Assembly (NCBI GenBank): GCA_964373295.1
Contig: CAYJUA010000001.1
Span: 4,608 to 68,607 of the forward strand
DNA from: an uncultured Planctomycetia bacterium
Lineage (GTDB): Bacteria; Omnitrophota; Gorgyraeia; 1-14-0-20-64-10
Length of the DNA stretch: 64,000 nt
Direction of reading: 5' to 3'
A program made the translations under genes and the position numbers. Positions 507 through 32,722 of this stretch are shown here, in pieces (within the stretch, counting starts at the first letter, position 1; every line of letters begins with the position of its first letter). The notes below the pieces were generated by a model. The model saw only the letters and a program-made list of their open reading frames with translations, did no database searches and had not been told where the DNA came from.

Positions 507-1714
507 AGGCTGAGCTTGCGGGCGGCGAGGCCTGCGATCGTATCGCCGATCGCGAGCGAGGCGGTCGCGGCCGGGGAAGGGGTGTTGCAGACGTGGAGGG
601 CCCTCTCCCCCTGGATGATCCGGAAGTCGTCCAGGAGCGTCCCATCCGGGTCGACCGCCTGCGCCCGGACGCCGGCCCCCGCCGGGACCAGGTCACCCCG
701 TTCCAGGCAGGGCACCAGCCGCCGCGCCGAGCGCAGGAAGGCCGCCGCGCTGAGAGACCGCCAGCACTCCATCAGCCCCGTCCTCCAGTGACGGCCCGCC
801 ATCCGCCAGAAGCCAGGGTAGAGGGCCACCTCGGCTGCGTCCCGCAGGCTCACATCCGTTTTGCGGTACCCCTCCCGCTTGAGCGCCAGCACGGCGTTTG
901 GGCCCACCTCGACGCGGCCGTCCACGCGCCGGGAGAGGTGCACCCCCAGGAACGGGAAGCGGGGGTCCGGCACCGGGTAAATCAGGCCGCGCACCAGGGA
1001 CCGTTTGGAGGGGACCAGCTCGTAATATTCACCCCGGAAGGGAAGGATCCGCGTCGGGAGGAGGGCCCCGGAGGAGCGCGCCACCCGGTCGGCGTGCAGG
1101 CCCGCGCAATTGATAAGGAAGCGGGCGGAGAATTCGCCCCCGGTGGTTTCCAGCACCACCCCGCCCGGCACCGCGCGGCTGCGCAGGAGGCGGGTCCCGG
1201 TGAAGATCCGGACCCCCAGGCGGCGGGCTTCGGCGGCCATCTCCTCGGCGACCCGGCCGAAATCCACGCTCCAGACATGGGGGACATGGAGGGCGCGGAT
1301 CCCCGCGGCCGAGGGCTCGACCTCCCGCAGCTCTTCCGGGCTGAGGAGGCGCAGGTCCCGCACCCCGTTGGCCTTGCCCCGGTGGTAGAGCTCCTCGAGG
1401 CGGGCGATCTCAGCGGGCTCGATGGCGACAACCACTTTCCCACAGCGGCGAAGAGGGATGCCCCGCTCCTGGCAGAAGCCCACCATCCGCCGCCCTCCCC
1501 GGACGCAGAGCCCGGCCTTGAGGGAGCCCGGGCGGTAATAGATCCCCGAATGGATGACCCCGCTGTTGTGCCCGGTCTGGTGCGAGCCGGGGGCGCTCTC
1601 CTTCTCAAGCAGGGTGAGGCTGAGGCGCGGGAAATCGCGGGCGAGGGCGAGGGCGGCGGCGAGCCCGACAATCCCGCCCCCCACCACCGCCAGATCGGAC
1701 TCCTGAGTCGGCAT
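503..1714 (-). CDS. lhgO: FAD-dependent L-2-hydroxyglutarate oxidase/dehydrogenase-like oxidoreductase
   Basis: 403-aa ORF. N-terminal FAD dinucleotide-binding motif [19 protein letters not shown], plus the segment [23 protein letters not shown] that is typical of LhgO-family enzymes. It is the only convincing minus-strand gene and is convergent with the DegT fragment. Confidence 0.7.
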
Positions 1715-1765
1715 TCTCCCTTTCGTTTTTCCCTCGTATCATATAACATGAGGATTCAATCTCAA
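1715..1765. promoter_or_regulatory. Divergent intergenic region with an AT-rich island (tttcgttttt ... TATCATATAAC); candidate promoter/operator for lhgO and the UXS operon
   Basis: 51 bp between the divergent starts. The AT-rich 11-mer at about 1737-1747 stands out in GC-rich DNA. An AGGA Shine-Dalgarno motif lies about 11 nt before ATG 1766. Confidence 0.3.
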
Positions 1766-4108
1766 ATGCGGATCCTCATCACCGGGGGCGCCGGTTTCAT
1801 CGGCTCGCACCTCACCGAGCGTTTCCTCGCGGAGGGCCACGAGGTCCTCTGCGTGGACAACTTCATCACCGGCGCGGAGAAGAACCTTTCCGGGGCGGAC
1901 GGGAAGAGCTCCTTTCAGCTGGTCCGGCATGACATCAGCCGGCCGCTGGAGGTGGAAGGTTCGGTGGATTTCGTCCTCCATTTCGCGTCGCCCGCCAGCC
2001 CGCCGGACTACATGCGGTACCCCATCCAGACGATGAAGGTGGGCGCCCTGGGAACGCACAACGCCTTGGGGATCGCCAAGGCGAAGAAAGCGAAGTTCCT
2101 GCTGGCCTCCACCTCGGAGGTGTACGGGGACCCGGAGATCCACCCTCAGAAGGAGAGTTATTGGGGCCACGTGAACCCCGTGGGGCCGCGCGGGGTCTAC
2201 GACGAAGCCAAGCGGTTCGCCGAGGCGCTCACCATGGCGTACCACCGGGAGCACGAGGTGGACACCCGGATCGTCCGGATCTTCAACAGTATTCTTGCGG
2301 ATGAGACGGTGGTTCTCTTCAATGAGCGCAAGCTGCATCTGGAGCCCATCGCGGACTACGTGGCCGGTTTGGAGCGCCGTCTGGAGCTCGATCCGCCGAA
2401 GATTCTTGTTCCGTCCTTTGATCCCGAGACCTGCCGAGTGTCTTTGGCGGAAGTCAGCGCGGTCATCAAGCATCCCTGCCAAACCGAGTGCTTTCAGCTC
2501 CATCTTCGCTATGGCCGCAGCGTCAAGGTGACCGGCGATCATAGCGTCTTCACCTGCGATGAAAACGGTGCGCCGATCGCAATCCCTGTTCGTCAATTGC
2601 AGGTTGGCGATTACGTTGCGATCCCTGCAGCCTTGCCTGCCGTCGAAAATGACGTTGAACGCTTTCATCTGGGGGACGCTCTCATGCGAGCCCTACCCGA
2701 AGCTGAGCTGTGGGATTATGTCGTTCAGGCTCCCAGCCTCCGGGCAATCATCGACAGCCGAAGGGACGATCTGCACAGGATCCTTGAGGAAAGCGCGCGC
2801 CTTCAGGCAAAGCGGAGGAAAAACGCTCTGGGATGCGCCGCAAGAAAGTATCTGAAGCAGTCTTTTCTGCCGCTTTATGTCCTCAAGCGGTTGGGGATCG
2901 CTGTCCCCGAGGGGGGTCGGTTGCGGGTCTTCAAGTCGGGTGCGCACATCCGGCTGCCTGCGACGATTGAACTTACCGATGACCTTTTGTGGCTCATCGG
3001 CTTCTTCATCGCGGAAGGCGGCTTCCATTATTCGGCCGGGAAAAGCGCGTACATCTCGTTTTGCTCCAACGGCTACTTGCTTGACCGCGCCGCAAGCATC
3101 CTGCAGGGGTTGGGTTGCCACGTCGTTCGGGTCCCTCCAACTGAGAAAACAGGCCCTGCAGTGACGGCGCATTCCCGGCTTCTCCATCATTTGTTCAAAG
3201 ATGTTTTCGGGGTCGTCGGAGAGGGAAAGAGATTTCCAACATGGATTCTCCAGTTGCCGCTCTCCCGGCTGAAGCATGTCCTGGAAGGTTTCCGGGAAGG
3301 GGACGGCACCCACAGCGGGAAGAAAATGGGCAAGGAGCTTTGTTTCGATACGACCAGCGAGCCTCTAGCCCAGCAACTCCTGTATCTCTTGCTTCGGTTC
3401 GGAATCGTCGGTAGCTTCGGAAAGTACGGCACTACGTTCCGGAAAAAATATGGAGACCGACGGTTCCCGTTCTTCCGCGTGACCATCTGCGAGTTGGATA
3501 ATTTCGATGTTCTCGGTTGGGATCGAGGGGTTCGGCAAACACTTGATGCAAGACGGAAGGGCGACTTGGTGTGGTCCAGAGTGAAGCGGATTGAGCCTTG
3601 TGAACCGACGGGATTTGTCTACGACTTCTCCGTGCCGCAGAGGGAGAATTTTGTGGCTGGAAACGGCGTCTTCTGCCATAACACCTACGGTCCCCGGATG
3701 CGGGAGGAGGACGGCCGCGCCATTCCCAACTTCATCACCCAGGCGCTCGCGGGGAAGCCGGTGACGGTCTTCGGGGGCGGTTCCCAGACCCGGTCGTTCT
3801 GCTACATCTCGGACATGGTCGAGGGGATCGCGCGCCTGATGAAGAGCGATTTGCACGACCCGGTGAATCTGGGGAATCCCAATGAGATGACCCTTCTGGC
3901 CCTGGCGCGGTTCATTCTGCGGCTGAGCGGCAGCAAAAGCCTCATCGAGTTCCGCCCGCTGCCGGTGGACGACCCGAAGGTCCGGTGCCCGGACATTTCC
4001 CGCGCCCGGGAGGTGCTGCGCTGGAGGCCGGCTGTGCCGCTGGAGGAAGGGCTGCTGAAGACGGTCGAGTGGTTCCGCCAGCTTGACACCCGCTTAAAAT
4101 TTCGGTAA
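1766..4108 (+). CDS. UDP-glucuronate decarboxylase (UDP-xylose synthase)-like NAD-dependent epimerase/dehydratase, interrupted in-frame by an intein
   Basis: N-extein [16 protein letters not shown]...YDEAKR...RIVRIFN and C-extein [18 protein letters not shown]...GNPNEMTL... together give a contiguous UXS/ArnA-like SDR with the hallmark RIFNTYGPRM motif once the insert is removed. An alternative in-frame ATG lies at 1748. The AGGA RBS favours 1766. Confidence 0.85.
2288..3682 (+). mobile_element. Intein (465 aa) with LAGLIDADG homing-endonuclease domain, inserted between N and T of the RIFN|TYGPRM motif
   Basis: Starts with Ser1 ([11 protein letters not shown], block A). TxxH block B ([10 protein letters not shown]). 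Dodecapeptide-like blocks [14 protein letters not shown] and [14 protein letters not shown]. Block [18 protein letters not shown]. Terminal ...VFCHN followed by +1 Thr. In frame with no stops. Confidence 0.8.
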
Positions 4109-4182: not shown

Positions 4183-5574
4183 GTGAGGATCGAGGAGTAC
4201 CGGAGCCTTCAACTCCTCCACGAGCTCTCCGAGGATCCCGAAGTGACGCAGCGGGGTCTGGGCCGGAGGGTCGGCTTGGCCCTGGGGCTCATCAACGCCC
4301 ACCTGCACCGCCTGAGCACGCAGGGGCTCATCGAGATCCTGGATGGGAACAGGGGGCGCATCCGCTATCAGATCACGGCCGCCGGGGTGGAGGAGAAGAG
4401 CCACCTGATCGGGGAATACCTCGAATACTCCTTGCATTTCTACCGCGATCTCCGGCGTTTCCTGAGGGAGCGTCTTGTCCAGCTGGCGGGGCAAGGGGTG
4501 CAGCGGATCCTCCTGGTCGGGACGGGCGACCTGGCGGAGGTGGCCTATCTCACGCTGCAGGAAGTGGGCCTGGCCCTTGCCGGGGTGGTGGGGGAAGGAG
4601 AGGGCCGGAGGCAGACCTTCTTCAATCTCCCGGTCCGCGATCTCTCGGCGGCCGGCTCTTTGGAGTTCGACCATGTCATCGTGGCGGCCGAAAAATCCGA
4701 CGGCCGCCTCTCGCGGGAACTGGCCGCCCTGGGCATCCCGCAAAAGAGGGTGATTCTCCTTCCCCACGACCCCTCCTCCTTCGCCGGGCTGGGCCTCAAG
4801 GATTGGTTCGTGCCGAGCTCGGAGAATGGAAGACCTTTGCGTCCCTCGACCACGGATGTGGTGGTCCTCTGCGGCGGGAGGGGGACCCGCCTGGGCTCGC
4901 TGACGGCGGAGACGCCGAAACCGCTCCTCCCCGTGGGGGAGGAGCCGTTTCTCCTGCGCCTCATCGCCCGCCTGAAAAGGGAAGGGTTCACGCGGATCGT
5001 GCTGGCGGCCCACTACCGCCCCGACCAGTTCGAGGCGCTCCTCCAGGAACGGCGGGCCGAGCTCGCCGACGTGGAGCTGGTGGTTGAGCCGGAACCCCTG
5101 GGCACCGGCGGGGCGCTCCGGCACGCCGTGGAGCATGTGCTCAGCCCCGCGTTCGTGGTGCTCAACGGGGACACCTGGGTGCGGCAGCCGCTGGGCCCGG
5201 TGCTGGAGGAGCACGGCACGTTGGGGCGCCAGTTCACCGTGGTCGCGGTGCATTCCTCGCGGGTGGAGGGGGAGCCGCTGAAGAAGGGGGTCTGGCGGAT
5301 CGGGCCCCGGGGCGAGGTGCTGGGGTTCGAGACGCAGGATTCGGTGGCGAACGGATGGGTGAACGCGGGCTGCTACGTGCTGGACCGGGGCATGGTGCAG
5401 GCGTGGCCCGTGGGGTCGTACAGCTTGGAGGCGAACCTCCCGGCGCTCCTCAAGGGGCGAAGGAGCGGCGTGTTCTGCTCGGAGGGAAGGATGCTGGACA
5501 TCGGCATGCCGAGCACTTACGACCGGGCGGCGGCGGTCCTGGAATCCTACGGGTCGATGGAGGTCCTCGCGTGA
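4183..5574 (+). CDS. Three-domain protein: N-terminal winged-helix DNA-binding domain plus Rossmann-like domain (Rex-like arrangement) fused to a sugar-1-phosphate nucleotidyltransferase
   Basis: GTG start. N-terminal section (residues 1-95) looks like a wHTH. A GVQRILLVGTGDLAEVAYL Rossmann-type stretch follows. The C-terminal half has the nucleotidyltransferase signature VVVLCGGRGTRLGSLTAETPKPLLPVGEEPFL and later GWVNAGCYVL. It is a single uninterrupted ORF. Confidence 0.6.
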   Translation: MRIEEYRSLQLLHELSEDPEVTQRGLGRRVGLALGLINAHLHRLSTQGLIEILDGNRGRIRYQITAAGVEEKSHLIGEYLEYSLHFYRDLRRFLRERLVQLAGQGVQRILLVGTGDLAEVAYLTLQEVGLALAGVVGEGEGRRQTFFNLPVRDLSAAGSLEFDHVIVAAEKSDGRLSRELAALGIPQKRVILLPHDPSSFAGLGLKDWFVPSSENGRPLRPSTTDVVVLCGGRGTRLGSLTAETPKPLLPVGEEPFLLRLIARLKREGFTRIVLAAHYRPDQFEALLQERRAELADVELVVEPEPLGTGGALRHAVEHVLSPAFVVLNGDTWVRQPLGPVLEEHGTLGRQFTVVAVHSSRVEGEPLKKGVWRIGPRGEVLGFETQDSVANGWVNAGCYVLDRGMVQAWPVGSYSLEANLPALLKGRRSGVFCSEGRMLDIGMPSTYDRAAAVLESYGSMEVLA

Positions 5575-6731
5575 GCTTGGCCACGTCGGCCCCAGCGGAG
5601 GCCAAGCGGCCTTACCGGATCACGTTCGGGTACATCGAGGTGGGGGCGTCGGGGCGGCGCTGGTTGGAGGAGGCGCTGGACCGGAACTGGGTCTCTGAAG
5701 GCCCCAACGTCCAGCGGTTCGAGGAGCTCTTCGCGAAGCGGTTCGGATACCGGCAGGCGGTGGCGACCAGCTCCGGGACGGACGCCGGGATCGTGGCGAT
5801 GTCGGTGCTGATGGATCGCGGGGTGCAGCGGGGCGACGAGGTGATCACCCCGTCGCTGGCGTTCGTGGCCACGGGGAACTGCATCCTCGCGGCGGGGCTG
5901 ACCCCGAAGTTCGTGGACGTGGAGCTCGGGACCCTCAACATCGACCCGGCCCTCCTTGAGCGGGCGATCACGCCCCGGACGCGCGCCATCCAGGTGGTGC
6001 ACACGATGGGCAAGCCGTGCCGGATGGGCCCGATCCTGGAGGTCGCGCGGAGGCACAAGCTCGCCGTCATCGAGGACTGCTGCGAGGCGCATGGGGCGAC
6101 GCTCAACGGCCAGGTGGTCGGCTCCTTCGGGGAGATGGGGCTCTTCAGCTTCTACGTGGCGCACATCATCTGCAGCGGCGAGGGCGGGATGATCTCCACG
6201 GGCGATGCCGGCCTGGCGCTCCTTTGCCGGTCGGTGCGCAGCCACGGCCGCCGGGGCGGGCAGCTCTATTTCCACTTCGACCGGGTCGGTTACAACTCCA
6301 AGATGAACGACCTGGAGGCGGCCATCGGCCTCGAGGGGTTGGAGTTGTTCGACCGGACCTTCGGCATCCGCCGGCGGCATCTCCAGCGGCTCTGGGAGCG
6401 GCTGGCCCCTCTGGAGGACCGTCTGATCCTGTACCGCGACGGGCCGGGCGAGGTGACCTGCCCCCACGCCTTCCCGCTCGTGCTGCGCGACCCCCGGGCC
6501 TCCATCGAGGGGCTCTATCAGCACCTGGAGAGCCGGGGGATCCAGTGCAAGACGCTGTTCGGATCGCTGCCGGTTCAGCACGACTGCTTCAAGTTCCTCG
6601 GCTACCGCACGGGCAGCTTCCCCGTGGCGGAGCGGATCGGGCGGACCGGCCTTCATTTCGGCGTCCATCAGTATTTGACCGAAGGGGACATCCATTATGC
6701 TGCAGAATGCATCCGGTCCTACTTCAAGTAA
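5571..6731 (+). CDS. DegT/DnrJ/EryC1/StrS-family PLP-dependent sugar aminotransferase
   Basis: GTG start overlaps the upstream stop (GTGA). ...FEELFAKRFGYRQAVATSSGTDAGIVAM..., lysine-containing block FSFYVAHIICSGEGG, and C-terminal ...LPVAERIGRTGLHFGVHQYLTEGDI... are typical of DegT enzymes. Confidence 0.85.
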   Translation: MSLATSAPAEAKRPYRITFGYIEVGASGRRWLEEALDRNWVSEGPNVQRFEELFAKRFGYRQAVATSSGTDAGIVAMSVLMDRGVQRGDEVITPSLAFVATGNCILAAGLTPKFVDVELGTLNIDPALLERAITPRTRAIQVVHTMGKPCRMGPILEVARRHKLAVIEDCCEAHGATLNGQVVGSFGEMGLFSFYVAHIICSGEGGMISTGDAGLALLCRSVRSHGRRGGQLYFHFDRVGYNSKMNDLEAAIGLEGLELFDRTFGIRRRHLQRLWERLAPLEDRLILYRDGPGEVTCPHAFPLVLRDPRASIEGLYQHLESRGIQCKTLFGSLPVQHDCFKFLGYRTGSFPVAERIGRTGLHFGVHQYLTEGDIHYAAECIRSYFK

Positions 6732-8802
6732 GCCGCTGAAGACAGCCGAGGCGGCTCCCTTCGGAAACGGGGAGGGCCTGCGCCTCTACCGGAAGCTGAT
6801 CCTGTCCCGCCGGGCGGAGGAGAGGGTCCGCAGGGAATACCCCGGCGACGAGATGAAGACGCCGGTTCATCTGGGCGTCGGCCAGGAGGCGATCCCGGTC
6901 GGCGTTTGCTCTGTCCTTCCTCCCGGGACGCGGGCGTTCGGGACCTACCGGAACCACGCCCTGTACCTCTCCCTCACCGACGACGTGGATGGTTTCTTCG
7001 GGGAACTCTACGGCCGGGCCACGGGGCCGGGCAAGGGCAAAGCCGGCTCCATGCATTTGACTTATCCGGAGCGCGGCTTGATGGCCACCTCCGCGGTGGT
7101 CGGCACCACCCTCCCGCTTGCCGTCGGCGCGGCCCTGGCCAACGCCTACCGGAAGAGCCCCGCTTGGGTGGTGGCCTTCTTCGGGGATGGCGCGGCGGAG
7201 GAAGGCGCTTTCTGGGAAAGCCTCAATTTCGCCTGCCTGCGGCGCCTGCGGATCCTCTTCGTGTGCGAAGACAACGGATTGGCCATCCACACCTCAACCC
7301 CTCAGCGGCAGGGCTTCCGCTCGATCCCGGAGGCGGTGCAGGGGTTTGAATGCCATGTGGACAGCCAGGATGGGAGCGACCTCGCGGCGGTCGTCGCCTC
7401 CACCCGGCGGATGCTGGAGCGGATGGAGAGGGATCCCAAGCCCGGCTTCCTGCACTTCACCTATTTCCGCTTCCTCGAGCACGTGGGACCCCGGGAGGAT
7501 TTTGAGGCGGGATATCGGCGCCGCCCCACGCCGGAGGAGATGGAGCGCCTGGATCCCGTTTCCCGGTTCGAGAAGGCCCTTTGCCGGAACGGCTGCACCC
7601 CGGCGGACCTGCAGCGGGTCCAGTCGGAGGTGGACAGCCGGATCGACCGCGCGGTGCAGGGCGCCCGGACGGCCGCGTTCGCCCCGCCCGCCGAGCTGTA
7701 CACGGATCTCTTCGCCGAGGCGCAGCACGCCCAAGCCCGGCCCGATGCGCCCGAGATCCCGAGGGCGCAGATCTCCTTCCGGCAGGCCCTGACGCTGGCC
7801 CTGCGCAGGGAGATGGAGTCCGACCCGGAGGTTTTTGTTTTCGGGCTGGACGTGCCCGACCACAAGCGGATTTTCGGGAGCACGGCCGGGCTGGTGGAGC
7901 AGTTCGGACCGGAGCGCTGTTTCGGCACCCCTCTTTCGGAGGAGGCGATGACCGGGGTCGCGCTGGGCGCCGCCATCTCCGGCCTGCGCCCCGTCCATGT
8001 CCACATCCGGGCCGATTTCATGCTGCTGGCCATGAACCAGATCGTCAACATGATCTCGAACCTCCGCTACATGACCGGTGGGCGGCTCCGGATCCCCCTG
8101 GTCATCCGGGCGGTGATCGGGCGTGGCTGGGGCCAATCCGCGCAGCACAGCAAGACGCTCCACGGCATCCTCAGCCATTTCCCGGGGCTCAAGGTGGTGA
8201 TGCCATCGACCCCCCAGGACGCGTACAGCCTGCTCCGCTCCTCTGTCCGGGACGACAACCCGGTCATCTTCCTGGAGCACCGGTGGCTTTACGACGTCGT
8301 CGGCGAGGTGGACGAAGCCAAGGCCATCCCGCTGGGGCTCCCCGCCCTCCGGCGCCGCGGCGGAGCCCTGACGGTGGTCAGCACCTCCTGGATGACGGTG
8401 GAGGCCTTGAAGGCGGCGGAGGTCCTTTCCCGGAAGCAGGGGGTGGAGCTGGAGGTCGTGGATGTCCGGACCGTCTCGCCCCTGGACGTGGAGCCGATGG
8501 TGGAGTCGGTCCGGAAGACCCGCCACTGCATCGTGGCCGACTACGACTGGGCATTCTCGGGCTTCTCCGCGGAGCTGGCGGCGCAGATTGGCCATCGCTG
8601 CTTCGGGATCTTAAAGAAGCCGGTGGAACGGCTGGGGTTCGCCCATGTCCCGTGCCCGACGACGCGGCCGCTGGAAAACCTCTTTTACCCCTCCGCCGTC
8701 CACATCATCCGGACGGCCGAGAAGATGCTGGGCCTGTCCGAGCAGGACCTGTCGGGAGAATCGTTCTACAGCTATGAGCACAAGTTCAAGGGGCCCTTCT
8801 GA
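6697..8802 (+). CDS. Fused thiamine-diphosphate-dependent 2-oxoacid dehydrogenase E1 component (alpha and beta subunits in one 701-aa chain)
   Basis: Alpha part: LRLYRKLILSRRAEERV...GDGAAEEGAFWESLNFA (TPP-binding GDG motif). Beta part: ...FGLDVPDHKRIFGSTAGLVEQFGPERCFGTPLSEEAMTGVALGAAISGLRP...MPSTPQDAYSLL... The start overlaps the upstream gene by 35 nt, so a later start is possible. Confidence 0.8.
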   Translation: MLQNASGPTSSKPLKTAEAAPFGNGEGLRLYRKLILSRRAEERVRREYPGDEMKTPVHLGVGQEAIPVGVCSVLPPGTRAFGTYRNHALYLSLTDDVDGFFGELYGRATGPGKGKAGSMHLTYPERGLMATSAVVGTTLPLAVGAALANAYRKSPAWVVAFFGDGAAEEGAFWESLNFACLRRLRILFVCEDNGLAIHTSTPQRQGFRSIPEAVQGFECHVDSQDGSDLAAVVASTRRMLERMERDPKPGFLHFTYFRFLEHVGPREDFEAGYRRRPTPEEMERLDPVSRFEKALCRNGCTPADLQRVQSEVDSRIDRAVQGARTAAFAPPAELYTDLFAEAQHAQARPDAPEIPRAQISFRQALTLALRREMESDPEVFVFGLDVPDHKRIFGSTAGLVEQFGPERCFGTPLSEEAMTGVALGAAISGLRPVHVHIRADFMLLAMNQIVNMISNLRYMTGGRLRIPLVIRAVIGRGWGQSAQHSKTLHGILSHFPGLKVVMPSTPQDAYSLLRSSVRDDNPVIFLEHRWLYDVVGEVDEAKAIPLGLPALRRRGGALTVVSTSWMTVEALKAAEVLSRKQGVELEVVDVRTVSPLDVEPMVESVRKTRHCIVADYDWAFSGFSAELAAQIGHRCFGILKKPVERLGFAHVPCPTTRPLENLFYPSAVHIIRTAEKMLGLSEQDLSGESFYSYEHKFKGPF

Positions 8803-8815
8803 TGAGCTCCGATCC

Positions 8816-9781
8816 ATGAAGAGCATTTTCGTGCCGGGGCACACCGGTTTGGTGGGTTCGGCGCTGTGCCGGCGGTGGGCAGGCCGGCCGGGACTCCGGG
8901 TCATCACCGCGCCGCGGCGCGAGCTGGACCTGGCCGACTCCGCCGCGGTGAAAGGGTTCCTCCAGCGGGAGAAGCCGGAGGCGGTGGTGATCGCCGCCGG
9001 CAGGGTGGGCGGGATCCGGGCGAACGACTCGCGGCCGGCGGAGTTCATCCACGACAACCTGATGATCGAGGCGAATCTCATCCACGGGGCCTGGAAGGCG
9101 GGGATCCGCCTTCTCCTCAACTTCGGGAGCGGCTGCATGTACCCCCGGGAGTGCCCGCAGCCGATGGCTCCGGAGCACCTGATGTCAGGCCCGATGGAGC
9201 CGACCAGCGAGCCGTATTCCCTGGCGAAGCTGGCCGGCTGGATCCTGTGCCGGTCATACAACCGGCAGTACGGGACCCGGTATGTGACGGCGATCCCCTC
9301 CTCGGTGTACGGGCCGGGCGACAACTTCGATCCGGAAGCGGGGCATGTGCTCTCAGGGCTCCTGCGGAAGTTCCACGAGGCGAAGGAAGAGGGACGAGGG
9401 CACGTCACGCTCTGGGGCACGGGGAAGGCTCGCCGCGAGTTCATCTACGCGGATGACCTGGCCGAGGCCTGCGAGCTGCTCCTGGAAAAGCACCCGGGAG
9501 ACGAGCCCATCAACGTGGGCACGGGAGAGCCGGTGAGCATCCGGGAGCTGGCAGGGCTCATCGCGGAAGGGGTGGGTTTTAAAGGCAGGGTCGAGTGGGA
9601 TCCTTCCCGGCCCGATGGCGCTCCGGCCAAGCGGCTGGATTCCCGGCCGCTGCGGGCGATGGGGTGGTCTCCGCGGACGGGTTTAAGGGAAGGGCTGGAG
9701 AGGACGTACGCGTGGTTCCTGCAGAGTGCGGCCGGGAGCCCGGAAGGGCGGGCGGCCGCACAGGCGGGCGTTGAGAGGTGA
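8816..9781 (+). CDS. fcl: GDP-L-fucose synthase-like NDP-4-keto-6-deoxyhexose 3,5-epimerase/4-reductase
   Basis: MKSIFVPGHTGLVGSAL...RELDLADSAAV...FIHDNLMIEANLIHGAWKAGIRLL...PTSEPYSLAKLAG...YNRQYGTRY...VYGPGDNFDPEAGHVLSGLLRKFHEA...TLWGTGKARREFIYADDLAEA is colinear with Fcl/WcaG. The ORF start in the track lies upstream in junk. ATG 8816 is in frame and follows the E1 stop. Confidence 0.75.
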   Translation: MKSIFVPGHTGLVGSALCRRWAGRPGLRVITAPRRELDLADSAAVKGFLQREKPEAVVIAAGRVGGIRANDSRPAEFIHDNLMIEANLIHGAWKAGIRLLLNFGSGCMYPRECPQPMAPEHLMSGPMEPTSEPYSLAKLAGWILCRSYNRQYGTRYVTAIPSSVYGPGDNFDPEAGHVLSGLLRKFHEAKEEGRGHVTLWGTGKARREFIYADDLAEACELLLEKHPGDEPINVGTGEPVSIRELAGLIAEGVGFKGRVEWDPSRPDGAPAKRLDSRPLRAMGWSPRTGLREGLERTYAWFLQSAAGSPEGRAAAQAGVER

Positions 9782-9785
9782 CCGG

Positions 9786-10748
9786 ATGAGAGGATCCAAC
9801 GGACAGGCCGGCGGCTTCAAGGTCCTCGTCACCGGTGGTGCGGGATACATCGGATCCGTCCTCGTGCCGATGCTCCTCGAGGAGGGGCATCAGGTGACGG
9901 TGATGGACAACTTCATGTACGGGCAGACGTCGCTGCTGGACTGCTGCCACCGGGCGAACCTCGCGGTGGTGCGCGGCGACGCGCGGGACGAGCGGGTGGT
10001 GCGGCCCCTGGTTAGCCAAGCGGACGTGGTCCTGCCGCTGGCCTGCCTGACGGGGGCGCCGCTGTGCGAGAAGGATCCCGCGCAGGCCCGGCAGGTGAAC
10101 CTCGACGCCGTCCGCGCCGTCACGCAGTGGAAATCCCGCGGCCAGCGGATCATCTTCCCGACGACCAACAGCGGGTACGGGATCGGGCAGGATGGGATCC
10201 ACTGCACGGAGGAGACGCCCCTGCGGCCGATCTCCACGTACGGGCGCCTCAAGGTGGACGCCGAGAAGGCGGTCCTGGACGCGGGAAACAGCATCACCTT
10301 CCGCCTGGCCACGGCCTTCGGGATCAGCCCCCGGATGCGGCTGGACCTGCTGGTCAACGATTTCGTCTACCGGGCGGTAACGGACGGTTTCCTGGTGCTC
10401 TTCCAGGCGCATTTCAAGCGGAACTACATCCACGTCCGGGACATCGGCGGGGCCTTCCTCCATGCCATCGGCAGCTTCGACGCGATGAAGGGCCATGCCT
10501 ACAACGTGGGCTTGAGCGACGCGAACCTCTCCAAGCGGGAGCTCTGCGAGGAGATCAAGAAGCAGGTCCCGCGGTTCTACTTCATCGAGGCGGAGGTCGG
10601 GGAGGACCCCGACAAACGGAACTACATTGTCAGCAACGAGAAGATGGAGCGGACCGGCTTCAAGCCGGAGGTCTCCCTGCGGGAAGGCATCGCGGGGCTG
10701 ATCAAGGGCTATCAGGTGATTCGCCGGATGCAGTTCGCCAACGCGTAG
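9786..10748 (+). CDS. NAD-dependent sugar epimerase/dehydratase family protein
   Basis: FKVLVTGGAGYIGSVLVPMLLEEGHQVTVMDNF... Rossmann N-terminus. YxxxK region ISTYGRLKVDAEK. Confidence 0.75.
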   Translation: MRGSNGQAGGFKVLVTGGAGYIGSVLVPMLLEEGHQVTVMDNFMYGQTSLLDCCHRANLAVVRGDARDERVVRPLVSQADVVLPLACLTGAPLCEKDPAQARQVNLDAVRAVTQWKSRGQRIIFPTTNSGYGIGQDGIHCTEETPLRPISTYGRLKVDAEKAVLDAGNSITFRLATAFGISPRMRLDLLVNDFVYRAVTDGFLVLFQAHFKRNYIHVRDIGGAFLHAIGSFDAMKGHAYNVGLSDANLSKRELCEEIKKQVPRFYFIEAEVGEDPDKRNYIVSNEKMERTGFKPEVSLREGIAGLIKGYQVIRRMQFANA

Positions 10749-10757
10749 GAGGGGCCG

Positions 10758-11825
10758 ATGATCATCTGCCGGACGCCCTTCCGGATCTCCTTTTTCGGCG
10801 GCGGGACGGATTACCCCGCCTGGTACCGGGAGAACGGGGGGGCCACGCTGGTGACGACGATCAGCAAGTACTGCTACATCACCTGCCGCTGGCTGCCTCC
10901 TTTCTTCCAGCACCGCAGCCGGATTGTTTGGTCGAAGATCGAGCTGGTGCGGGAGACCGGGGAGATCGAGCACCCCGCGGTGCGTGAGGCGCTGCAGCAC
11001 CTCCACATTCGGCACGGGATCGAGATCCACCACGACGGCGACCTCCCGGCTCGAACCGGCCTGGGGTCGAGCTCCGCCTTCACGGTGGGCCTCCTTCACG
11101 CCCTCTACGGCCTGAAGGGGGTCATGCCGAGCAAGCGGCAGCTCGCGCTGGAGGCGATCCGCGTGGAGCAGGGGTGGCTCCAGGAGAATGTGGGGTGCCA
11201 GGACCAGGTGGCGGCGGCCTTCGGAGGCTTCAACCGGATCGATTTCGAGCGCAACGATGGGATCCAGGTTTCCCCGATCCTCTTGGATCCGGGTCGGCTG
11301 GTGGAGCTCCAGAGCCGCCTGATGCTTTACTACACGGGGATCTCGCGGACCGCTTCGGAAATCGCCGGCGAGCAGATCAAGGCGACTTCCCGCAAGAAGG
11401 AGGAGCTTCGGGCGATCTACGGGATGGTGGATGAGGCGGTGCGGATCCTGCAGAGCGGCGAGGATTTGAAGGCCTTCGGGCGGATTCTCCACGAAAGCTG
11501 GAAGCTCAAACGGTCGCTCACCCCGCGGATCTCGACCCCCATGATCGATCAGCTCTACGAAACCGCCCGGGCTGCGGGAGCCACCGGCGGGAAGATCCTG
11601 GGGGCCGGAGGCGGGGGGTTCCTGCTGCTCTTCGTCGAACCGGATCGCCAGCCGGAGGTCCGCGAGGCCCTGGGACAACTGCTGCACGTCCCGGTGCAGT
11701 TCGAGAGCTCTGGGAGCCGAATCATCTTCTATGACCCGGACGGCTACGATCCGGAGGAGGGGGTGGCGCAGCAGCAGCGAACGGGGAGTTCTCCGGAACA
11801 AGAAGGGATTTTGACCCCGGGATGA
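10758..11825 (+). CDS. GHMP-family sugar kinase (HddA / fucokinase-like)
   Basis: MIICRTPFRISFFGGGTDYPAWY N-terminus and GHMP motif PARTGLGSSSAFTVGLLHAL. Strong AGGAGG RBS upstream. Confidence 0.75.
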   Translation: MIICRTPFRISFFGGGTDYPAWYRENGGATLVTTISKYCYITCRWLPPFFQHRSRIVWSKIELVRETGEIEHPAVREALQHLHIRHGIEIHHDGDLPARTGLGSSSAFTVGLLHALYGLKGVMPSKRQLALEAIRVEQGWLQENVGCQDQVAAAFGGFNRIDFERNDGIQVSPILLDPGRLVELQSRLMLYYTGISRTASEIAGEQIKATSRKKEELRAIYGMVDEAVRILQSGEDLKAFGRILHESWKLKRSLTPRISTPMIDQLYETARAAGATGGKILGAGGGGFLLLFVEPDRQPEVREALGQLLHVPVQFESSGSRIIFYDPDGYDPEEGVAQQQRTGSSPEQEGILTPG

Positions 11826-12625
11826 CGGCGCTCTCTGGAGGGGCCCAAACGGTTGCCGCTGGGAGCGGGGTCGGGGCGACGCAGCGGCGTCTGAAGTACA
11901 CGATGCTGGTCATGACGCTCAACGAGATCGAGGGAATGAAGGTGATCATGCCCCGGGTGCGCGGGGAGTGGCTTGACCAGATCATCGTGGTGGACGGGGG
12001 CTCCTCCGACGGCACCATCGAGTGGGCCCGGGAGCGCGGCTATGAGGTCCATGTGCAGCAGCGTCCGGGTTTCCGAAGCGCCTACCAGGAGGTGTGGCCG
12101 AAGGTTTCCGGGGACGTGGTGATCTACTTCACACCCGATGGAAATACCGTGCCGGAGGCGATCCCACAGCTCATCGAGAAAATGGAGGAGGGATACGACC
12201 TCGTGATCGGGTCCCGCTACCTGGGCGACGCGAAGTCCCTGGATGACGACGCGGTGACCTCCTTCGGGAACTGGCTGTTTCGCACGCTGACCAATCTGCT
12301 GCTGAAGCCTCGGGGCTCTCCCCGGATGACCGATCCCATGATCATGTTCCGAGCGCACCGCAGGGACCTCCCCCATCGGCTGGGGCTGGATCGGCCGGAG
12401 CCGTTCGAGGGGCTCGAGCATCTCTTCAGGACCCGGGTGGACTGGATCCCCCTGATGAGCATGCGGGCCCTGAAATGGGGAGCCCGGTGGACCGAGATCC
12501 CGGCGGATGAACCGCCCCGGATCGGAGGGGAGAGGAAGCTCCAGATCCTCAAGTGGGGAGCGGTCTTCCTTCTTCAGCTCCTGCGGGAGGCGGTCTCGGG
12601 ATCCCGGAAAGCGCCGCTGGCCTAG
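11822..12625 (+). CDS. Family-2 glycosyltransferase (polyprenyl-phosphate sugar synthase / DPM-synthase-like)
   Basis: ATGA overlap with the kinase. MLVMTLNEIEG...VVDGGSSDGT...DLVIGSRYLGDAKS pattern of GT2 DPM1-like enzymes. Confidence 0.7.
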   Translation: MTALSGGAQTVAAGSGVGATQRRLKYTMLVMTLNEIEGMKVIMPRVRGEWLDQIIVVDGGSSDGTIEWARERGYEVHVQQRPGFRSAYQEVWPKVSGDVVIYFTPDGNTVPEAIPQLIEKMEEGYDLVIGSRYLGDAKSLDDDAVTSFGNWLFRTLTNLLLKPRGSPRMTDPMIMFRAHRRDLPHRLGLDRPEPFEGLEHLFRTRVDWIPLMSMRALKWGARWTEIPADEPPRIGGERKLQILKWGAVFLLQLLREAVSGSRKAPLA

Positions 12626-12645
12626 CGGAAGGCAGGAAGCTCCCC

Positions 12646-14949
12646 TTGTCCGCGTCCCGGCGGCGGGTCCTCCTTTACAGGGTTGTGCCTGCGGCATCGG
12701 TTCTCCTGTTCCTCGGCCTGCTGGCCCCCGCAGTCCGCGGCGCCGTCCCGGACACCGACCACTGGTGGATCCTCCCGACCTTTTCCCACTACGTGGAAGG
12801 GCAATCCGCCTCGGAGATCGCCTCTTTCCTCCTGAACCATTCCCCGAAATATTTCCGGCCGCCTCTGCTCAAGGGGCTGATCCTGTTTGTGGACGGCTTC
12901 CTGGGACTTCCGTTCCGCGCCTTCCCAGCAGCCGGCCTGCTGATCCACCTGCTCAACGCTGTCCTCCTGGCCCTCCTTTGTCGGAAGATGGGGATCTCCC
13001 TTCGGGCGGCGATCTCCAGCGGGGTCATCTTCCTGGCCCTCTTCATCCATTTCCACGGCTACCTCTGGCTTCCGGCGTCTCAGCACCCCTACTCGATCAC
13101 CACCACCCTGGCGGTGCTGTGGCTCTTCCTCCGGACGGAGGAACTCAGGCGCCGGGGCCGGCCCTGGAAAGGAACCTATGCCCTCACGGCGCTGGGGACC
13201 GCTGTGGGATCGCTCCAGCACTCTGGAATGATCGCGCTGGGCTCGATGGTCTGCCACGCGTGGGTGGCGCCGGGCTTAAGCGGGATCCAGCGGAGGGAAT
13301 TGTGCAGGCGCTGGCTGCCGGTCTGGGGGCTGTTCCTGATCTATCCTTTGTGGGCGATGGCCGCCTTCGGTGACAACACGGCGATCTCGGCCATCGAGAA
13401 GATCCCCCTTCCGCCGCTGGCCAAGACGGCGGCGCTGCTCCTGGCGGCGGCCGCCGGGCTGCTGCTGATCCGCTTCGCGGCGGGAATGAGGAGCCTGCGC
13501 AGGGGCTGGGTCGGCCTGGCCCTGGCTTTGGGGGTCTGGATTCTCCTGATGGCGCGGGACTTGCGGCAGGTTCTCCTGCCGTACAACGGGCTGGTCCCCT
13601 TCATGACGGTGCTGGGCTCTTTCCTGGACCCGATCCATTCCGCTCTGCGGATGGATTCCGTCGACCCCTACCATTACGCGCAGCCCCAGGTCTCCGTTTT
13701 CCTCCTCCTGCTCACCCTCGTTACCGCCGGGACGTTTACCCTGGCCTTCGCGCGGAGAAAGAGAGGCCTGGCGGTGTGGGGGGTGTGGTATGGGATCGCG
13801 CTGGCTTACTTGCTCCTCCATAAGCACGTCGCCTCCAGCATGCCGTTCCGGACGCAGTCCCGCTATTTTCTGTACCTCTCCCCCCTCTTCTCCGTGATGG
13901 CCGGGTGCGGGCTGGCCTATGCCGCCGCGGTTCTGGCGCGGGGCGCCAGGTGGAAGAGACGGGGGCGGGATGCGGCGCTGGCTCTCACGCTGGCCGCGCT
14001 GTGCGTGCCCAATCTCCTGGCGATCCGGTTGGCCTTGTTCCGCGGGAGGCTGGTCAACACCTACTTCGTCTACGACGATGTCCGCGCCGCGGCCCTGATC
14101 GCCAGCGACCTGAAAGGCGCGGGGGATGGGGAACCGGTCGCCGTGGAGGGGCTGACCTCCTTCTGGTTTCGGAAGAAGTGGAGCCGGCCGGTGGAGGGCG
14201 AGCGGATCGCTTTCGACAATTTTCGGAGGATCCTGAGGGACCGAATCGGCCGCTCCCATCCGCTGGAGCTCGCCGGGGAGGCCAGGTGGGGGAAGGGACG
14301 CGGGTACCGGATCGGCGGCGGCCAGGTCTTCGCGCCGGACGGCAGGCCGCTCGATCTGTTCCGGGAGGAGGTCCGGGTGGGGCTGGCGCTCCTACAGGAG
14401 GGGCGCAGGGAGGAGGCGAGACGCCGCTTCCTCGCGGGGGCCGCCCGGCGGCCCTTCCTGGTGAACTACGTCCTGGGGGAGAGAGGGCGGCTGTCCGACG
14501 CGGAGTGGATCACCGGCGGCCTGGATCTGCGGGACTGGGCCGAGTGGATGGGCCGGCGCTACCGGCGATGGAGCATTGCGCCGGCGGAAAAGTGGGAGGC
14601 GGTTTCCTCCCTGATACGCGCCGAACTTTCCGATTACCTGCTCTGCCTATCGGTGCTCGCTTTCCTGGAGGATCAGGGCGGGCGGCCAGAGGAAGCCAAG
14701 CGATGGCTCTGCCAAGTCTACCTGCTGGAGCGTGATCCGGAGCGGGCGGCGGAGCTCCTCCGCGGGGATCCGCGCGCGGGCGAATCGATCCTGCTTCAGG
14801 AATTCTCCGCGCGCTTCCTGGATCCGGAGTGGTTTCACAACCCGGCCCCGTGGCGGAGGAACGACTACGCGTTTGCCAGGTTCCTGGCCCGGGCTCTCTT
14901 TGGATTGGATCTGCGGTCCGGTTGGGACCGGCGGGCAGGGGCGGCGTGA
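12646..14949 (+). CDS. Large polytopic membrane protein with C-terminal soluble domain, GT-C-fold-like putative glycosyltransferase (tandem paralog A)
   Basis: About 11 predicted TM segments in the first ~480 aa. Acidic first-loop motif VPDTDHWWILPTFSHYVEG. The C-terminal domain is rich in Arg and Trp. The ORF track begins at 12553 but that overlaps the GT2 by 73 nt. TTG 12646 has a GGAAGG RBS and is proposed as the start. Confidence 0.5.
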   Translation: MSASRRRVLLYRVVPAASVLLFLGLLAPAVRGAVPDTDHWWILPTFSHYVEGQSASEIASFLLNHSPKYFRPPLLKGLILFVDGFLGLPFRAFPAAGLLIHLLNAVLLALLCRKMGISLRAAISSGVIFLALFIHFHGYLWLPASQHPYSITTTLAVLWLFLRTEELRRRGRPWKGTYALTALGTAVGSLQHSGMIALGSMVCHAWVAPGLSGIQRRELCRRWLPVWGLFLIYPLWAMAAFGDNTAISAIEKIPLPPLAKTAALLLAAAAGLLLIRFAAGMRSLRRGWVGLALALGVWILLMARDLRQVLLPYNGLVPFMTVLGSFLDPIHSALRMDSVDPYHYAQPQVSVFLLLLTLVTAGTFTLAFARRKRGLAVWGVWYGIALAYLLLHKHVASSMPFRTQSRYFLYLSPLFSVMAGCGLAYAAAVLARGARWKRRGRDAALALTLAALCVPNLLAIRLALFRGRLVNTYFVYDDVRAAALIASDLKGAGDGEPVAVEGLTSFWFRKKWSRPVEGERIAFDNFRRILRDRIGRSHPLELAGEARWGKGRGYRIGGGQVFAPDGRPLDLFREEVRVGLALLQEGRREEARRRFLAGAARRPFLVNYVLGERGRLSDAEWITGGLDLRDWAEWMGRRYRRWSIAPAEKWEAVSSLIRAELSDYLLCLSVLAFLEDQGGRPEEAKRWLCQVYLLERDPERAAELLRGDPRAGESILLQEFSARFLDPEWFHNPAPWRRNDYAFARFLARALFGLDLRSGWDRRAGAA

Positions 14950-25342: not shown

Positions 25343-25932
25343 AGAGCCCCTTCCTGGTCGGGAAGAAGTGCTACCTGCGGCCGTTCGAGGAGTCGGACCT
25401 GCACGACGACTACGCCGCCTGGTTCAATGATCCGGCCATCACGCGGTACCTGGGGATGGGAAAATTCCCGGTCAGCCGGGAGGGCCTGCGCCTGTCGCTG
25501 GACCGGTTCCGAAACTCCACGAGCGACATCCTCCTGGCGATCATCGACGCCAAGACCGAAACCCACATCGGCAACGTGGCTCTGAACCGGATCAACTGGG
25601 TGCACCGGACCGCGGACACCGGCCTCGTGATCGGGCGCAAGGAATTCTGGGGGAAAGGGTACGCGACCGAGGCCTGGGCGTTGCTGGTGCGCTACGCGTT
25701 CGACACCCTCAACCTCCACAAGGTGATCGCCACGGTGGTGGGCGGCCACGACAGCAGCCAGGCGGCGCTGGAGAGGATCGGTTTCAAGGTGGAGGGGAGA
25801 TGCCGGGAGGAATTCTACGTGGACGGGGAGTACCACGACTACATCCGGCTGGGGCTGCTCCGGGGCGATCTCGCGCCGAAGCCGGTGAACGGAGAGAAGG
25901 CGGCCGCCGCCAACTCTAAGAGGGGACGGTGA
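25339..25932 (+). CDS. GNAT-family N-acetyltransferase (PseH/RimL-like)
   Basis: ATGA overlap with the synthase. ...HIGNVALNRINWVHRTADTGLVIGRKEFWGKGYATEAWALLVRYAFDTLNLHKV... is an acetyl-CoA-binding GNAT core. Confidence 0.75.
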   Translation: MKSPFLVGKKCYLRPFEESDLHDDYAAWFNDPAITRYLGMGKFPVSREGLRLSLDRFRNSTSDILLAIIDAKTETHIGNVALNRINWVHRTADTGLVIGRKEFWGKGYATEAWALLVRYAFDTLNLHKVIATVVGGHDSSQAALERIGFKVEGRCREEFYVDGEYHDYIRLGLLRGDLAPKPVNGEKAAAANSKRGR

Positions 25933-31888: not shown

Positions 31889-32722
31889 GTGACGGTGCTG
31901 ATGGCGGTGTACAACGACGCCGGCTACCTGCCGACGGCGGTGGAGAGCATCCTGGGGCAGGGCTACGGGGATTTCCGCTTCCTGATCCTGGACGACTGCT
32001 CGACCGACCGGACGCCGGAGCTCCTGCGCTCCTACGGCCGGGCCGATCCGCGGGTCGAGGTGGTCCGGCTGGAGCGCAACGTGGGCCAGACGGCAGCGCT
32101 CAACATCGGCCTGCGCCGGGCGGAGACTCCCTGGATCGCCCGGATGGACGCGGACGACTACTCCGCCCCGGACCGCCTGGAGCGGCAGATGAAGGCGCTG
32201 GAAGAAACCCCCGATGTCGCCTGCCTCGGGACGGCTGCCTGGGAATTCCGCGAGGACCCCGGGCAGAGGGACAGCATCGTCCGGAGACCCCCAGAGCACG
32301 GGGAGATCCGCCGCGCCGCCCTCTTGGGGGCGGGGATGATCCACGGCACCATCGTGGTGCGGCGGGAAGAGCTCCTGAGCTGCGGCGGGTACGATGAGCG
32401 GTACCGCTACGCCTCCGACCGAGAGATGTTCATCCGGCTTTTCCAGAAGGTGAAGGGGCGCAACCTTTCCGAGCCCCTGATGGGCCTGCGCCGGAACCCG
32501 GGCCAGGATTCTTACTCCCTGCGCGCGGCCGACGAATACATCGACATCTACCTGCGCCTCCTCAAGGCGGATGGGTTCCCGGTCGAGGAAAAGCGCGTCC
32601 TGCGGGACAGCCTGGCCTACAGCTACCTATTCCGGGCCCGCTGCCACCAGGCCGCCGGGAGGTGGGGGCACTGGATGACCGACGTGGCCCGAGCGCTGTG
32701 GACCCGGGGGACACCGCGATGA
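31889..32722 (+). CDS. Family-2 glycosyltransferase
   Basis: VTVLMAVYNDAGYLPTAVESILGQGYGDFRFLILDDCSTDRT...IARMDADD is the classic GT2 N-terminus (DxD). Confidence 0.75.
   Translation: MTVLMAVYNDAGYLPTAVESILGQGYGDFRFLILDDCSTDRTPELLRSYGRADPRVEVVRLERNVGQTAALNIGLRRAETPWIARMDADDYSAPDRLERQMKALEETPDVACLGTAAWEFREDPGQRDSIVRRPPEHGEIRRAALLGAGMIHGTIVVRREELLSCGGYDERYRYASDREMFIRLFQKVKGRNLSEPLMGLRRNPGQDSYSLRAADEYIDIYLRLLKADGFPVEEKRVLRDSLAYSYLFRARCHQAAGRWGHWMTDVARALWTRGTPR

Follow-up and report, generated by a model that had tools for sequence, protein, structure and literature searches.

A class-1 intein with a predicted homing endonuclease in a bacterial UDP-xylose synthase precursor

What is a 465-residue insert doing in the middle of a gene for a nucleotide-sugar enzyme: does the protein rid itself of it, and can the insert still move at the level of DNA? 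These questions are raised by a locus in a 64,000-nucleotide stretch of contig CAYJUA010000001.1 (assembly GCA_964373295.1, positions 4,608 to 68,607 of the forward strand) from an uncultured Planctomycetia bacterium that GTDB places in the Omnitrophota; we refer to the whole of this stretch as the window. The gene in question, at 1766..4108 on the + strand, encodes a UDP-xylose synthase (UXS; UDP-glucuronate decarboxylase) precursor with one intein. The combined evidence makes it highly probable, in our estimate, that this is a UXS precursor with a single class-1 intein, housing a nested double-motif LAGLIDADG endonuclease, which is spliced post-translationally and is predicted to home. Throughout, coordinates are those of the window and refer to the + strand unless stated otherwise; intein residues are counted from Ser1, the first residue of the insert, and extein residues are given in the numbering of the spliced protein.

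The precursor gene and its host enzyme

The + strand has a single long open frame in this region, from 593 to 4108. Within it we take the ATG at 1766 as the start codon, homologues likewise beginning with MRILITGG; the other upstream ATG lies at 1748. From 1766 the frame encodes 780 residues and closes with a TAA stop (4106-4108). Its first part is a 174-residue N-extein (1766..2287, +), the Rossmann NAD-binding part of the enzyme, which contains GGAGFIG and the catalytic residues T116/S117/E118, Y145 and K149 and ends in ...RIVRIFN. There follows the intein (2288..3682, +), 1395 nucleotides or 465 residues long, in frame and free of stops: it begins with Ser1, encoded by AGT (2288-2290), and closes with ...GNGVFCHN, the codon of the terminal Asn being AAC (3680-3682). 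The 141-residue C-extein (3683..4105, +) opens with TYGPRM, the first residue of which is Thr+1, the second nucleophile (ACC, 3683-3685), and holds the Arg that is specific to UXS enzymes. The computed masses are 87.5 kDa for the precursor, 52.3 kDa for the intein and 35.2 kDa for the spliced product of 315 residues. The 64-kb window holds no second UXS and no second intein, the other short-chain dehydrogenases/reductases (SDRs) encoded there being 22-27% identical.

With the insert removed, the extein aligns with human UXS1 (hUXS1; 4gll, 2b69) over residues 2-307 in one alignment (E 1.1e-115, 389 bits), with no gap at the splice junction, where rifnTYgprm stands opposite rifnTFgprm. The host is best read as a UXS orthologue, because the next-best PDB family (151 bits) and ArnA (~85 bits) score far below hUXS1. 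The active site of the human enzyme comprises the SDR triad T118, Y147 and K151, together with the UXS-specific residues S119, E120 and R277 (PMC3438964). All six are kept in the spliced extein as T116, S117, E118, Y145, K149 and R275, alongside a GxxGxxG NAD motif; those up to K149 fall within the N-extein, and the Arg (R275 when spliced, R740 in the precursor) belongs to the C-extein. As judged from these alignments, the spliced product is a UDP-xylose synthase, with the predicted activity of converting UDP-glucuronate (UDP-GlcUA) to UDP-xylose.

In the numbering of the mature enzyme the intein is inserted after N174 and ahead of T175, corresponding to N176/T177 in hUXS1. The NAD domain of the human protein extends over residues 4-181 and its UDP-GlcUA domain over residues 182-215 (PMC3438964); the insertion is thus positioned five residues ahead of the crossing from the former to the latter, beside the interdomain active-site cleft. 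Neither extein by itself carries all six active-site residues, and the insert interrupts the chain at the hinge that borders this cleft; the unspliced precursor is therefore probably inactive, with splicing needed for UXS activity.

Architecture, conservation and expected splicing of the intein

Profile searches recover both functional layers of the insert. In Pfam it matches Intein_splicing (PF14890; 81.0 bits against a cut-off of 35.8) and, over intein residues 332-406, LAGLIDADG_3 (PF14528; 47.4 bits against 22.5), and the Epimerase and GDP_Man_Dehyd domains are each broken in two around Intein_splicing. The NCBIfam models TIGR01445 (intein_Nterm; 28.9 bits, cut-off 24.5) and TIGR01443 (intein_Cterm; 27.1 bits, cut-off 15.6) match as well, the other NCBIfam matches being to the intein-bearing parts of the archaeal RNA polymerase A'', PolII, Tes, DnaB and RecA models. 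The best sequence match in the PDB is PI-PkoII (2cw7; E 3.5e-25), in three segments that correspond to the N-splicing, endonuclease and C-splicing regions. An AlphaFold2 (AF2) model of the intein, computed from an 11-sequence alignment (pLDDT 89.0, pTM 0.88), has the same 2cw7 as its top Foldseek match in the PDB (E 3.8e-30, TMq 0.71). Further whole-chain matches of this model are TliVMA (7qsu, E 1e-18; 7qss, E 8.5e-18), PhoVMA, PI-PfuI and PI-SceI (E 5e-11), and there are partial matches to mini-inteins for the HINT part and to I-DmoI for the endonuclease core.

The individual blocks can be placed along the insert: block A with Ser1, the first nucleophile (2288..2326, +; TIGR01445); block B with the TxxH motif, here T82-G-D-H85 (2513..2554, +); a mostly helical accessory or linker domain at intein residues ~121-225 (2648..2962, +), whose approximate boundaries are taken from the AF2 secondary structure; LAGLIDADG motif 1, or block C, with the sequence LIGFFIAE243G (2984..3025, +); LAGLIDADG motif 2, or block E, with the sequence LEGFREGD339G (3269..3313, +); and blocks F and G with D446, H464 and N465 (3611..3682, +; TIGR01443), block F spanning 3611-3667 and block G, VFCHN, 3668-3682. 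The features of a class-1 intein are all present, namely Ser1, TxxH, the block F Asp, the terminal His-Asn, Thr+1, the HINT profile and fold, and clean in-frame removal. In both LAGLIDADG motifs an acidic residue is followed by Gly, E243 and D339 being the predicted catalytic residues. The region of the model from residue ~226 to ~405 shows the pseudo-symmetric alpha-beta-beta-alpha-beta-beta-alpha fold of the LAGLIDADG family and superposes on I-DmoI (TMt ~0.65) and on the endonuclease domains of PI-PkoII, TliVMA and PI-SceI. By every feature examined in sequence and model, the insert is a standard class-1 intein with a predicted two-motif LAGLIDADG homing endonuclease. By analogy with the accessory domains of PI-TkoII, PI-PfuI and TliVMA (PMC8966425), residues ~121-225 probably form an accessory domain that aids DNA binding.

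The original prediction for this locus, made from the letters of the window, had called a full-length LAGLIDADG intein, and this is borne out by the Pfam, NCBIfam, PDB sequence and AF2/Foldseek matches: it had proposed a search of intein databases, and in the family and structure databases searched here the best matches are inteins and not a non-intein domain. Its placement of the insert at 2288-3682, in frame and with no stops, proved exact to the base, and all the residues and motifs that it named could be located, from Ser1 and TxxH through the two dodecapeptide motifs and block F to the closing HN and Thr+1. Likewise, excision does rejoin RIFN|TYGPRM of a UXS-type extended SDR, and without a gap relative to the human enzyme. 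Of the product sizes it gave, the ~52-kDa intein agrees with the computed mass, but the ~316-residue UXS comes to 315 residues when counted from the ATG at 1766. The site had been assigned to the substrate-binding loop: this is roughly right, the more precise location being the one just ahead of the domain crossing that is described above.

We infer the splicing steps from the standard class-1 pathway. Following translation, Ser1 would undergo an N-to-O acyl shift, and Thr+1 would attack the resulting ester in a transesterification. Asn465, helped by H464 and the block-F D446, would then cyclise to a succinimide and so free the 52-kDa intein, and a closing O-to-N shift would join RIFN-TYGPRM to give the 35-kDa enzyme.

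The conservation pattern across the family is consistent with such a pathway. Counts of conservation and of junctions refer to the best 80 loci (L002-L081), the closest intein-bearing relative, L001, being kept separate. Among the 80, S1, T82, H85, E243, D446 and N465 are invariant, as are G238 and G340 of the two LAGLIDADG motifs; D339 is found in 78 and H464 in 68. Thr+1 is invariant both in an alignment of 14 sequences and in the 79 loci where the junction pattern was recognised, namely L001 and 78 of L002-L081. Mean column identity is 0.62 in the LAGLIDADG core and 0.59 in the N-terminal part of the HINT domain, the accessory domain being the least conserved part at 0.45. The window intein departs from the family at two of 86 highly conserved columns, both non-catalytic: T288, where the family has R, and Q363, where it has D.

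As a separate observation, 12 of the 80 members have Lys, Ala, Arg or Ser in place of the penultimate His and keep the terminal Asn (L020, L029, L051, L054-L056, L059, L067, L077 and L079-L081). These versions of block G may reflect a variant chemistry of Asn cyclisation or reduced splicing.

Purifying selection acts on all domains. Between the window and L001 the ratio of nonsynonymous to synonymous substitution rates (dN/dS) comes to 0.18 in the exteins, 0.08 in the intein and 0.12 in its endonuclease part, rough values with the synonymous sites of this pair near saturation. Such constraint bears on the possibility that the insert does not splice at all, in which case the gene would encode an inactivated, pseudogene-like precursor, or the insert would be a permanently retained domain in a protein of changed function. 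Inteins with all-oxygen nucleophiles, as Ser1 and Thr+1 are, can indeed splice poorly in heterologous hosts. Here, however, the splicing residues are all present and invariant, and the exteins are both constrained and in possession of every UXS catalytic residue; moreover, the window has no other UXS copy, the gene holds its place in a conserved glycan cluster and at least 255 species have kept this architecture. We regard a non-splicing insert as highly improbable.

Distribution, empty sites and mobility

With the intein by itself as the query, a protein search gave 870 matches at E<1e-5. In the top 120 of these, the part looked at, the intein is 47-82% identical and lies in a UXS/SDR host; most are full length at ~775 aa, and a few are fragments. 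A scan of GTDB with two peptide patterns, taking one genome per species, found a relative in at least 255 species representatives, a lower bound. The best 80 loci cover ~15 bacterial phyla and two archaeal lineages; one carrier, the thermophile Thermus composti JCM 19902 (L027), is in culture. The bacterial hosts include Planctomycetota, Omnitrophota, Rokubacteria, Chloroflexota, Gemmatimonadota, KSB1, Bacillota, Actinomycetota, Acidobacteriota, Armatimonadota, Nitrospiraceae and Methylomirabilales, with Saccharibacteria and Nealsonbacteria from the candidate phyla radiation (CPR); the archaeal hosts are Altiarchaeota and Methanosarcinales. A simple pattern for the junctions, RIFN|S...N|T(Y/F)G, recognises 78 of the 80 best loci as well as L001 and the window. 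The two loci that missed it (L008, which matched RIFN|S and not N|T(Y/F)G, and L046, which matched HN|TYG and not RIFN|S) are by tblastn both full-length, single-frame intein-containing genes.

The base composition of the gene is uneven, the G+C content at third codon positions (GC3) being 0.91 in the N-extein, 0.66 in the intein and 0.88 in the C-extein. This distance of the intein from its flanks is what an assembly artefact, that is, a chimeric contig joining a foreign intein into a UXS gene, might be expected to leave. Yet both junctions preserve the frame to the exact codon, one and the same junction pattern recurs in L001 and in 78 of 80 genomes that were assembled independently, and the low GC3 is not particular to this contig but a property of the family: with ~3 exceptions among the 80 hosts, intein GC3 lies below that of the flanking exteins, in GC-poor and GC-rich hosts alike. 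An artefact is, accordingly, scarcely conceivable to us. Since the intein and exteins are on one mRNA, the level of expression cannot explain the GC3 deficit of the former, which points to horizontal flux or to a mutational history unlike that of the exteins. We also considered the drop in GC3 as proof of a very recent acquisition in this genome and rejected it, the deficit being common to nearly all hosts.

The immediate relatives of the host enzyme are without the intein. The best 120 extein matches to the spliced query are all intein-less and nearly all ~310 aa long, the top one being 85% identical; L001, the nearest intein-bearing relative (78% amino acid identity in the extein, 82% in the intein), is farther away than this best empty extein. 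The nearest named extein relatives come from metagenome-assembled genomes (MAGs) of Rokubacteria, Omnitrophica and Latescibacterota, at 70-74% identity. Groundwater metagenomes (ERZ978390 and ERZ27280021) provide an intein-less UXS of 313 aa (P0125, 80% identical) in a fully syntenic locus (L083/L084), with the order DAO, UXS, helix-turn-helix (HTH)-NTP transferase, DegT, E1, transketolase, epimerase, epimerase: this locus is the natural empty-site counterpart of the window.

The former insertion site can also be followed at the level of nucleotides. The empty site of a further intein-less allele (L082), GTGGACACCCGGATCGTCCGGATCTTCAAC|ACCTACGGCCCCCGGATGCGGAAAGAGGAT, matches the spliced junction of the window at 56 of 60 nucleotides, with 38 consecutive identical nucleotides across the insertion point. 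The left half of the former homing site in the window, the 30 nucleotides upstream of the intein (2258..2287, +; GTGGACACCCGGATCGTCCGGATCTTCAAC), is identical to L082 throughout (30/30), and the right half (3683..3712, +; ACCTACGGTCCCCGGATGCGGGAGGAGGAC) matches it at 26 of 30, the first eight nucleotides being identical. The candidate homing target is predicted to be the DNA coding for RIFN|TYGP, GTGGACACCCGGATCGTCCGGATCTTCAAC|ACCTACGGCCCCCGGATGCGG. The distribution is sporadic, with empty cognate sites in close relatives, as is characteristic of elements with a homing endonuclease.

Intein and extein similarities disagree, their overall correlation being 0.48. In L003, a Saccharibacteria MAG, the intein is 61% identical to that of the window and third closest of the 80, whereas the exteins, at 53-55%, are among the most distant; judged by sequence similarity, intein and exteins are here clearly incongruent across the CPR/non-CPR boundary. 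In the proposed cycle the free intein would act, by means of E243 and D339, as a site-specific endonuclease that cuts intein-less UXS alleles at the RIFN|TYGP DNA, whereupon repair, with the occupied allele as template, would bring the intein into the cut one (homing). On the basis of these sequence comparisons, the intein probably splices and is probably still mobile.

The same data can be read in terms of an intein that splices and has a dead endonuclease: it would be a fixed, vertically inherited passenger, the domain being kept for the stability of the splicing fold or for want of a precise deletion. The similar divergence of the window from L001 in intein and exteins is as under vertical descent, the two otherwise conserved residues that have changed in the window both belong to the endonuclease domain, and mutualism between HINT and endonuclease domains has been discussed and documented for other inteins (PMC8966425). 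Degenerate intein endonucleases such as that of PhoVMA, however, typically lose the catalytic acidic residues (PMC8966425), and the window endonuclease, unlike these, retains E243 and D339, which with their neighbouring Gly residues are intact in 78-80 of the 80 members. The low dN/dS of the endonuclease part and the incongruence of intein and extein similarities also speak against an inactive passenger; further, closer relatives hold empty alleles with an intact target, so that target sites are not depleted. We consider a dead endonuclease unlikely, though worth keeping in mind.

Several points weigh against an intein that splices and is still mobile. We infer both the splicing and the DNA cleavage. 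Ser1 and Thr+1 are weaker nucleophiles than Cys, and therefore an intein with all-oxygen nucleophiles could splice slowly or conditionally. T288 and Q363, the two departures within the endonuclease domain, could weaken DNA binding. Apart from the roughness of the dN/dS estimates, the low value for the endonuclease domain could reflect a structural role in splicing and not nuclease activity. Finally, no phage copy that might serve as a vector was found by tblastn against 50,697 phage records, which gave no match; a scan of viral contigs likewise yielded no vector copy and nothing beyond three weak HINT matches with 29% identity over 70 residues.

A search of 1.84 billion cluster representatives recovered 70 clusters at E<1e-30, including multi-intein giants of archaeal type. 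Among the proteins from this search (P0249, P0258, P0288 and P0244) are examples of a second intein clade, of only ~30% identity, that shares this UXS site (RIFN|SLTGDQ...CCHN|TYG), and of a related intein in a non-UXS SDR paralogue, where it occupies the homologous RIFN|S position and is followed by Ser, not Thr, at +1 (MAHN|SFAPGM). Because this site is occupied by a second, ~30% identical clade and, in a non-UXS SDR, by a related intein, RIFN|S seems, from the sequences, to be a hot spot in extended SDRs. A more far-reaching proposal would make RIFN|T of UXS-type SDRs a long-lived cross-domain homing hot spot with continuing traffic between phyla, where splicing by way of the all-oxygen pair Ser1/Thr+1 might gate the supply of UDP-xylose in some hosts. 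The low intein GC3 in almost every host, the two or more ~30% identical clades at one site together with the non-UXS SDR occupant, and the strong purifying selection on the endonuclease are all compatible with ongoing traffic. As a whole we rate this proposal as a long shot; were the gating to be true, the intein would not be purely selfish but would control, post-translationally, the UDP-xylose available for glycan synthesis.

Genomic setting and comparison with known systems

The precursor gene opens a large nucleotide-sugar/glycan cluster. Divergent from it lies an FAD oxidoreductase (503-1714, - strand). Downstream is an HTH-nucleotidyltransferase (4183-5574, +), in which a winged-helix HTH_24 domain is N-terminal to a sugar-phosphate nucleotidyltransferase; this fusion is also kept in the syntenic loci L083/L084, and it may be a self-regulating enzyme. 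It is followed by a DegT aminotransferase and then by an E1/transketolase-like protein of 701 aa (6697-8802, +) with E1_dh, Transket_pyr and Transketolase_C domains. The syntenic, intein-less L083 has two separate genes of 340 and 353 aa (9529-11609) in place of this single open reading frame (ORF), which is either a real alpha-beta fusion or a difference in sequencing or ORF reading. Two more SDR epimerases, a GHMP kinase and a GT2 glycosyltransferase lie farther downstream in the cluster. The segment 17320-31880 (+) encodes a nonulosonic-acid-like set, comprising a PseB-like Polysacc_synt_2 protein, a B12-binding radical SAM protein, GFO/IDH/MocA, NeuB, an ABC exporter, RmlD and a cytidylyltransferase fused to a class-III aminotransferase. 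By their domain content these look like a nonulosonic-acid pathway of pseudaminic or legionaminic type with its exporter. For the long ORFs of 546-813 aa within the cluster at 12553-14949, 14829-17270, 25929-27956 and 32662-34302 (all +), Pfam gave no hit at E<1e-5; they may encode membrane polymerases, flippases or novel proteins, or the frames may be spurious, given that the DNA is GC-rich. An Rfam scan of the window found no RNA gene.

The original prediction had further held that an intein is uncommon in a bacterial nucleotide-sugar enzyme, which is true of the described literature and not of the sequence data, with at least 255 species and 78 of 80 junctions now at hand. Full-text literature searches found no paper on a UXS intein; the main text of Novikova 2016, the part of that survey considered here, makes no mention of UXS or epimerases, and its emphasis, like that of published intein surveys, is on replication and repair proteins (PMC4760082). 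For genome annotation the names in use are of practical relevance. IMG automatically calls some relatives 'nucleoside-diphosphate-sugar epimerase/intein/homing endonuclease', and many others, of ~775 aa, are named just 'GDP-mannose 4,6-dehydratase' or 'SDR family oxidoreductase' with the intein unmentioned; NCBIfam has no intein-aware model for the UXS-intein protein.

With the UXS intein, the catalogue of inteins gains a host protein from outside replication together with its insertion site, and a well-populated one. The family is of use for annotation and for intein ecology. It does not change the understanding of how inteins function and will not surprise the specialist. As material for the study of homing it offers occupied (window) and empty (L083/L084) alleles in one syntenic context, a candidate target sequence, a cultured carrier in Thermus composti JCM 19902, and bacterial, CPR and archaeal members at one site. 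Being free of Cys at the splice positions, this Ser1/Thr+1 family with its many natural variants may also serve protein engineering.

Among known systems, the characterised extended SDRs of the UXS/ArnA type, including human UXS1, differ from the 780-residue precursor reported here in being intein-free. As to the insert itself, TliVMA and PI-SceI, both from V-ATPase subunit A, are similarly full-length class-1 inteins with a LAGLIDADG endonuclease, active in those two, and an accessory DNA-binding domain. It is with these inteins that the model of the homing cycle was established. They differ in host and insertion site, are 10-17% identical to the UXS intein, and use Cys1/Cys+1 as nucleophiles.

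The best solved relative in both sequence and fold is PI-PkoII/PI-TkoII, intein 2 of the Thermococcus kodakarensis DNA polymerase (2cw7). It shares with the UXS intein the succession of HINT N-part, accessory domain, double-LAGLIDADG endonuclease and HINT C-part, as well as the terminal HN. The two are, however, only ~23% identical, and the host of PI-PkoII is a family-B DNA polymerase, with another insertion site. With 537 aa, PI-TkoII also has an additional domain IV (PMC8966425), for which the 465-residue UXS intein has no room.

With respect to the biology of the host, the comparison is with the inteins of archaeal UDP-glucose/GDP-mannose dehydrogenases (UDP-GlcDH). In the tables of Novikova 2016, within the parts of the survey considered here, UDP-GlcDH is the sole nucleotide-sugar enzyme, with 10 inteins, all in Euryarchaeota (PMC4760082). 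Like UXS it is a nucleotide-sugar enzyme, acting one step upstream; unlike UXS, its inteins sit in a different host fold and at a different site, and their taxonomic range in that survey is confined to Euryarchaeota. By this analogy of host and pathway, the archaeal UDP-GlcDH intein is the nearest biological counterpart of the UXS intein.

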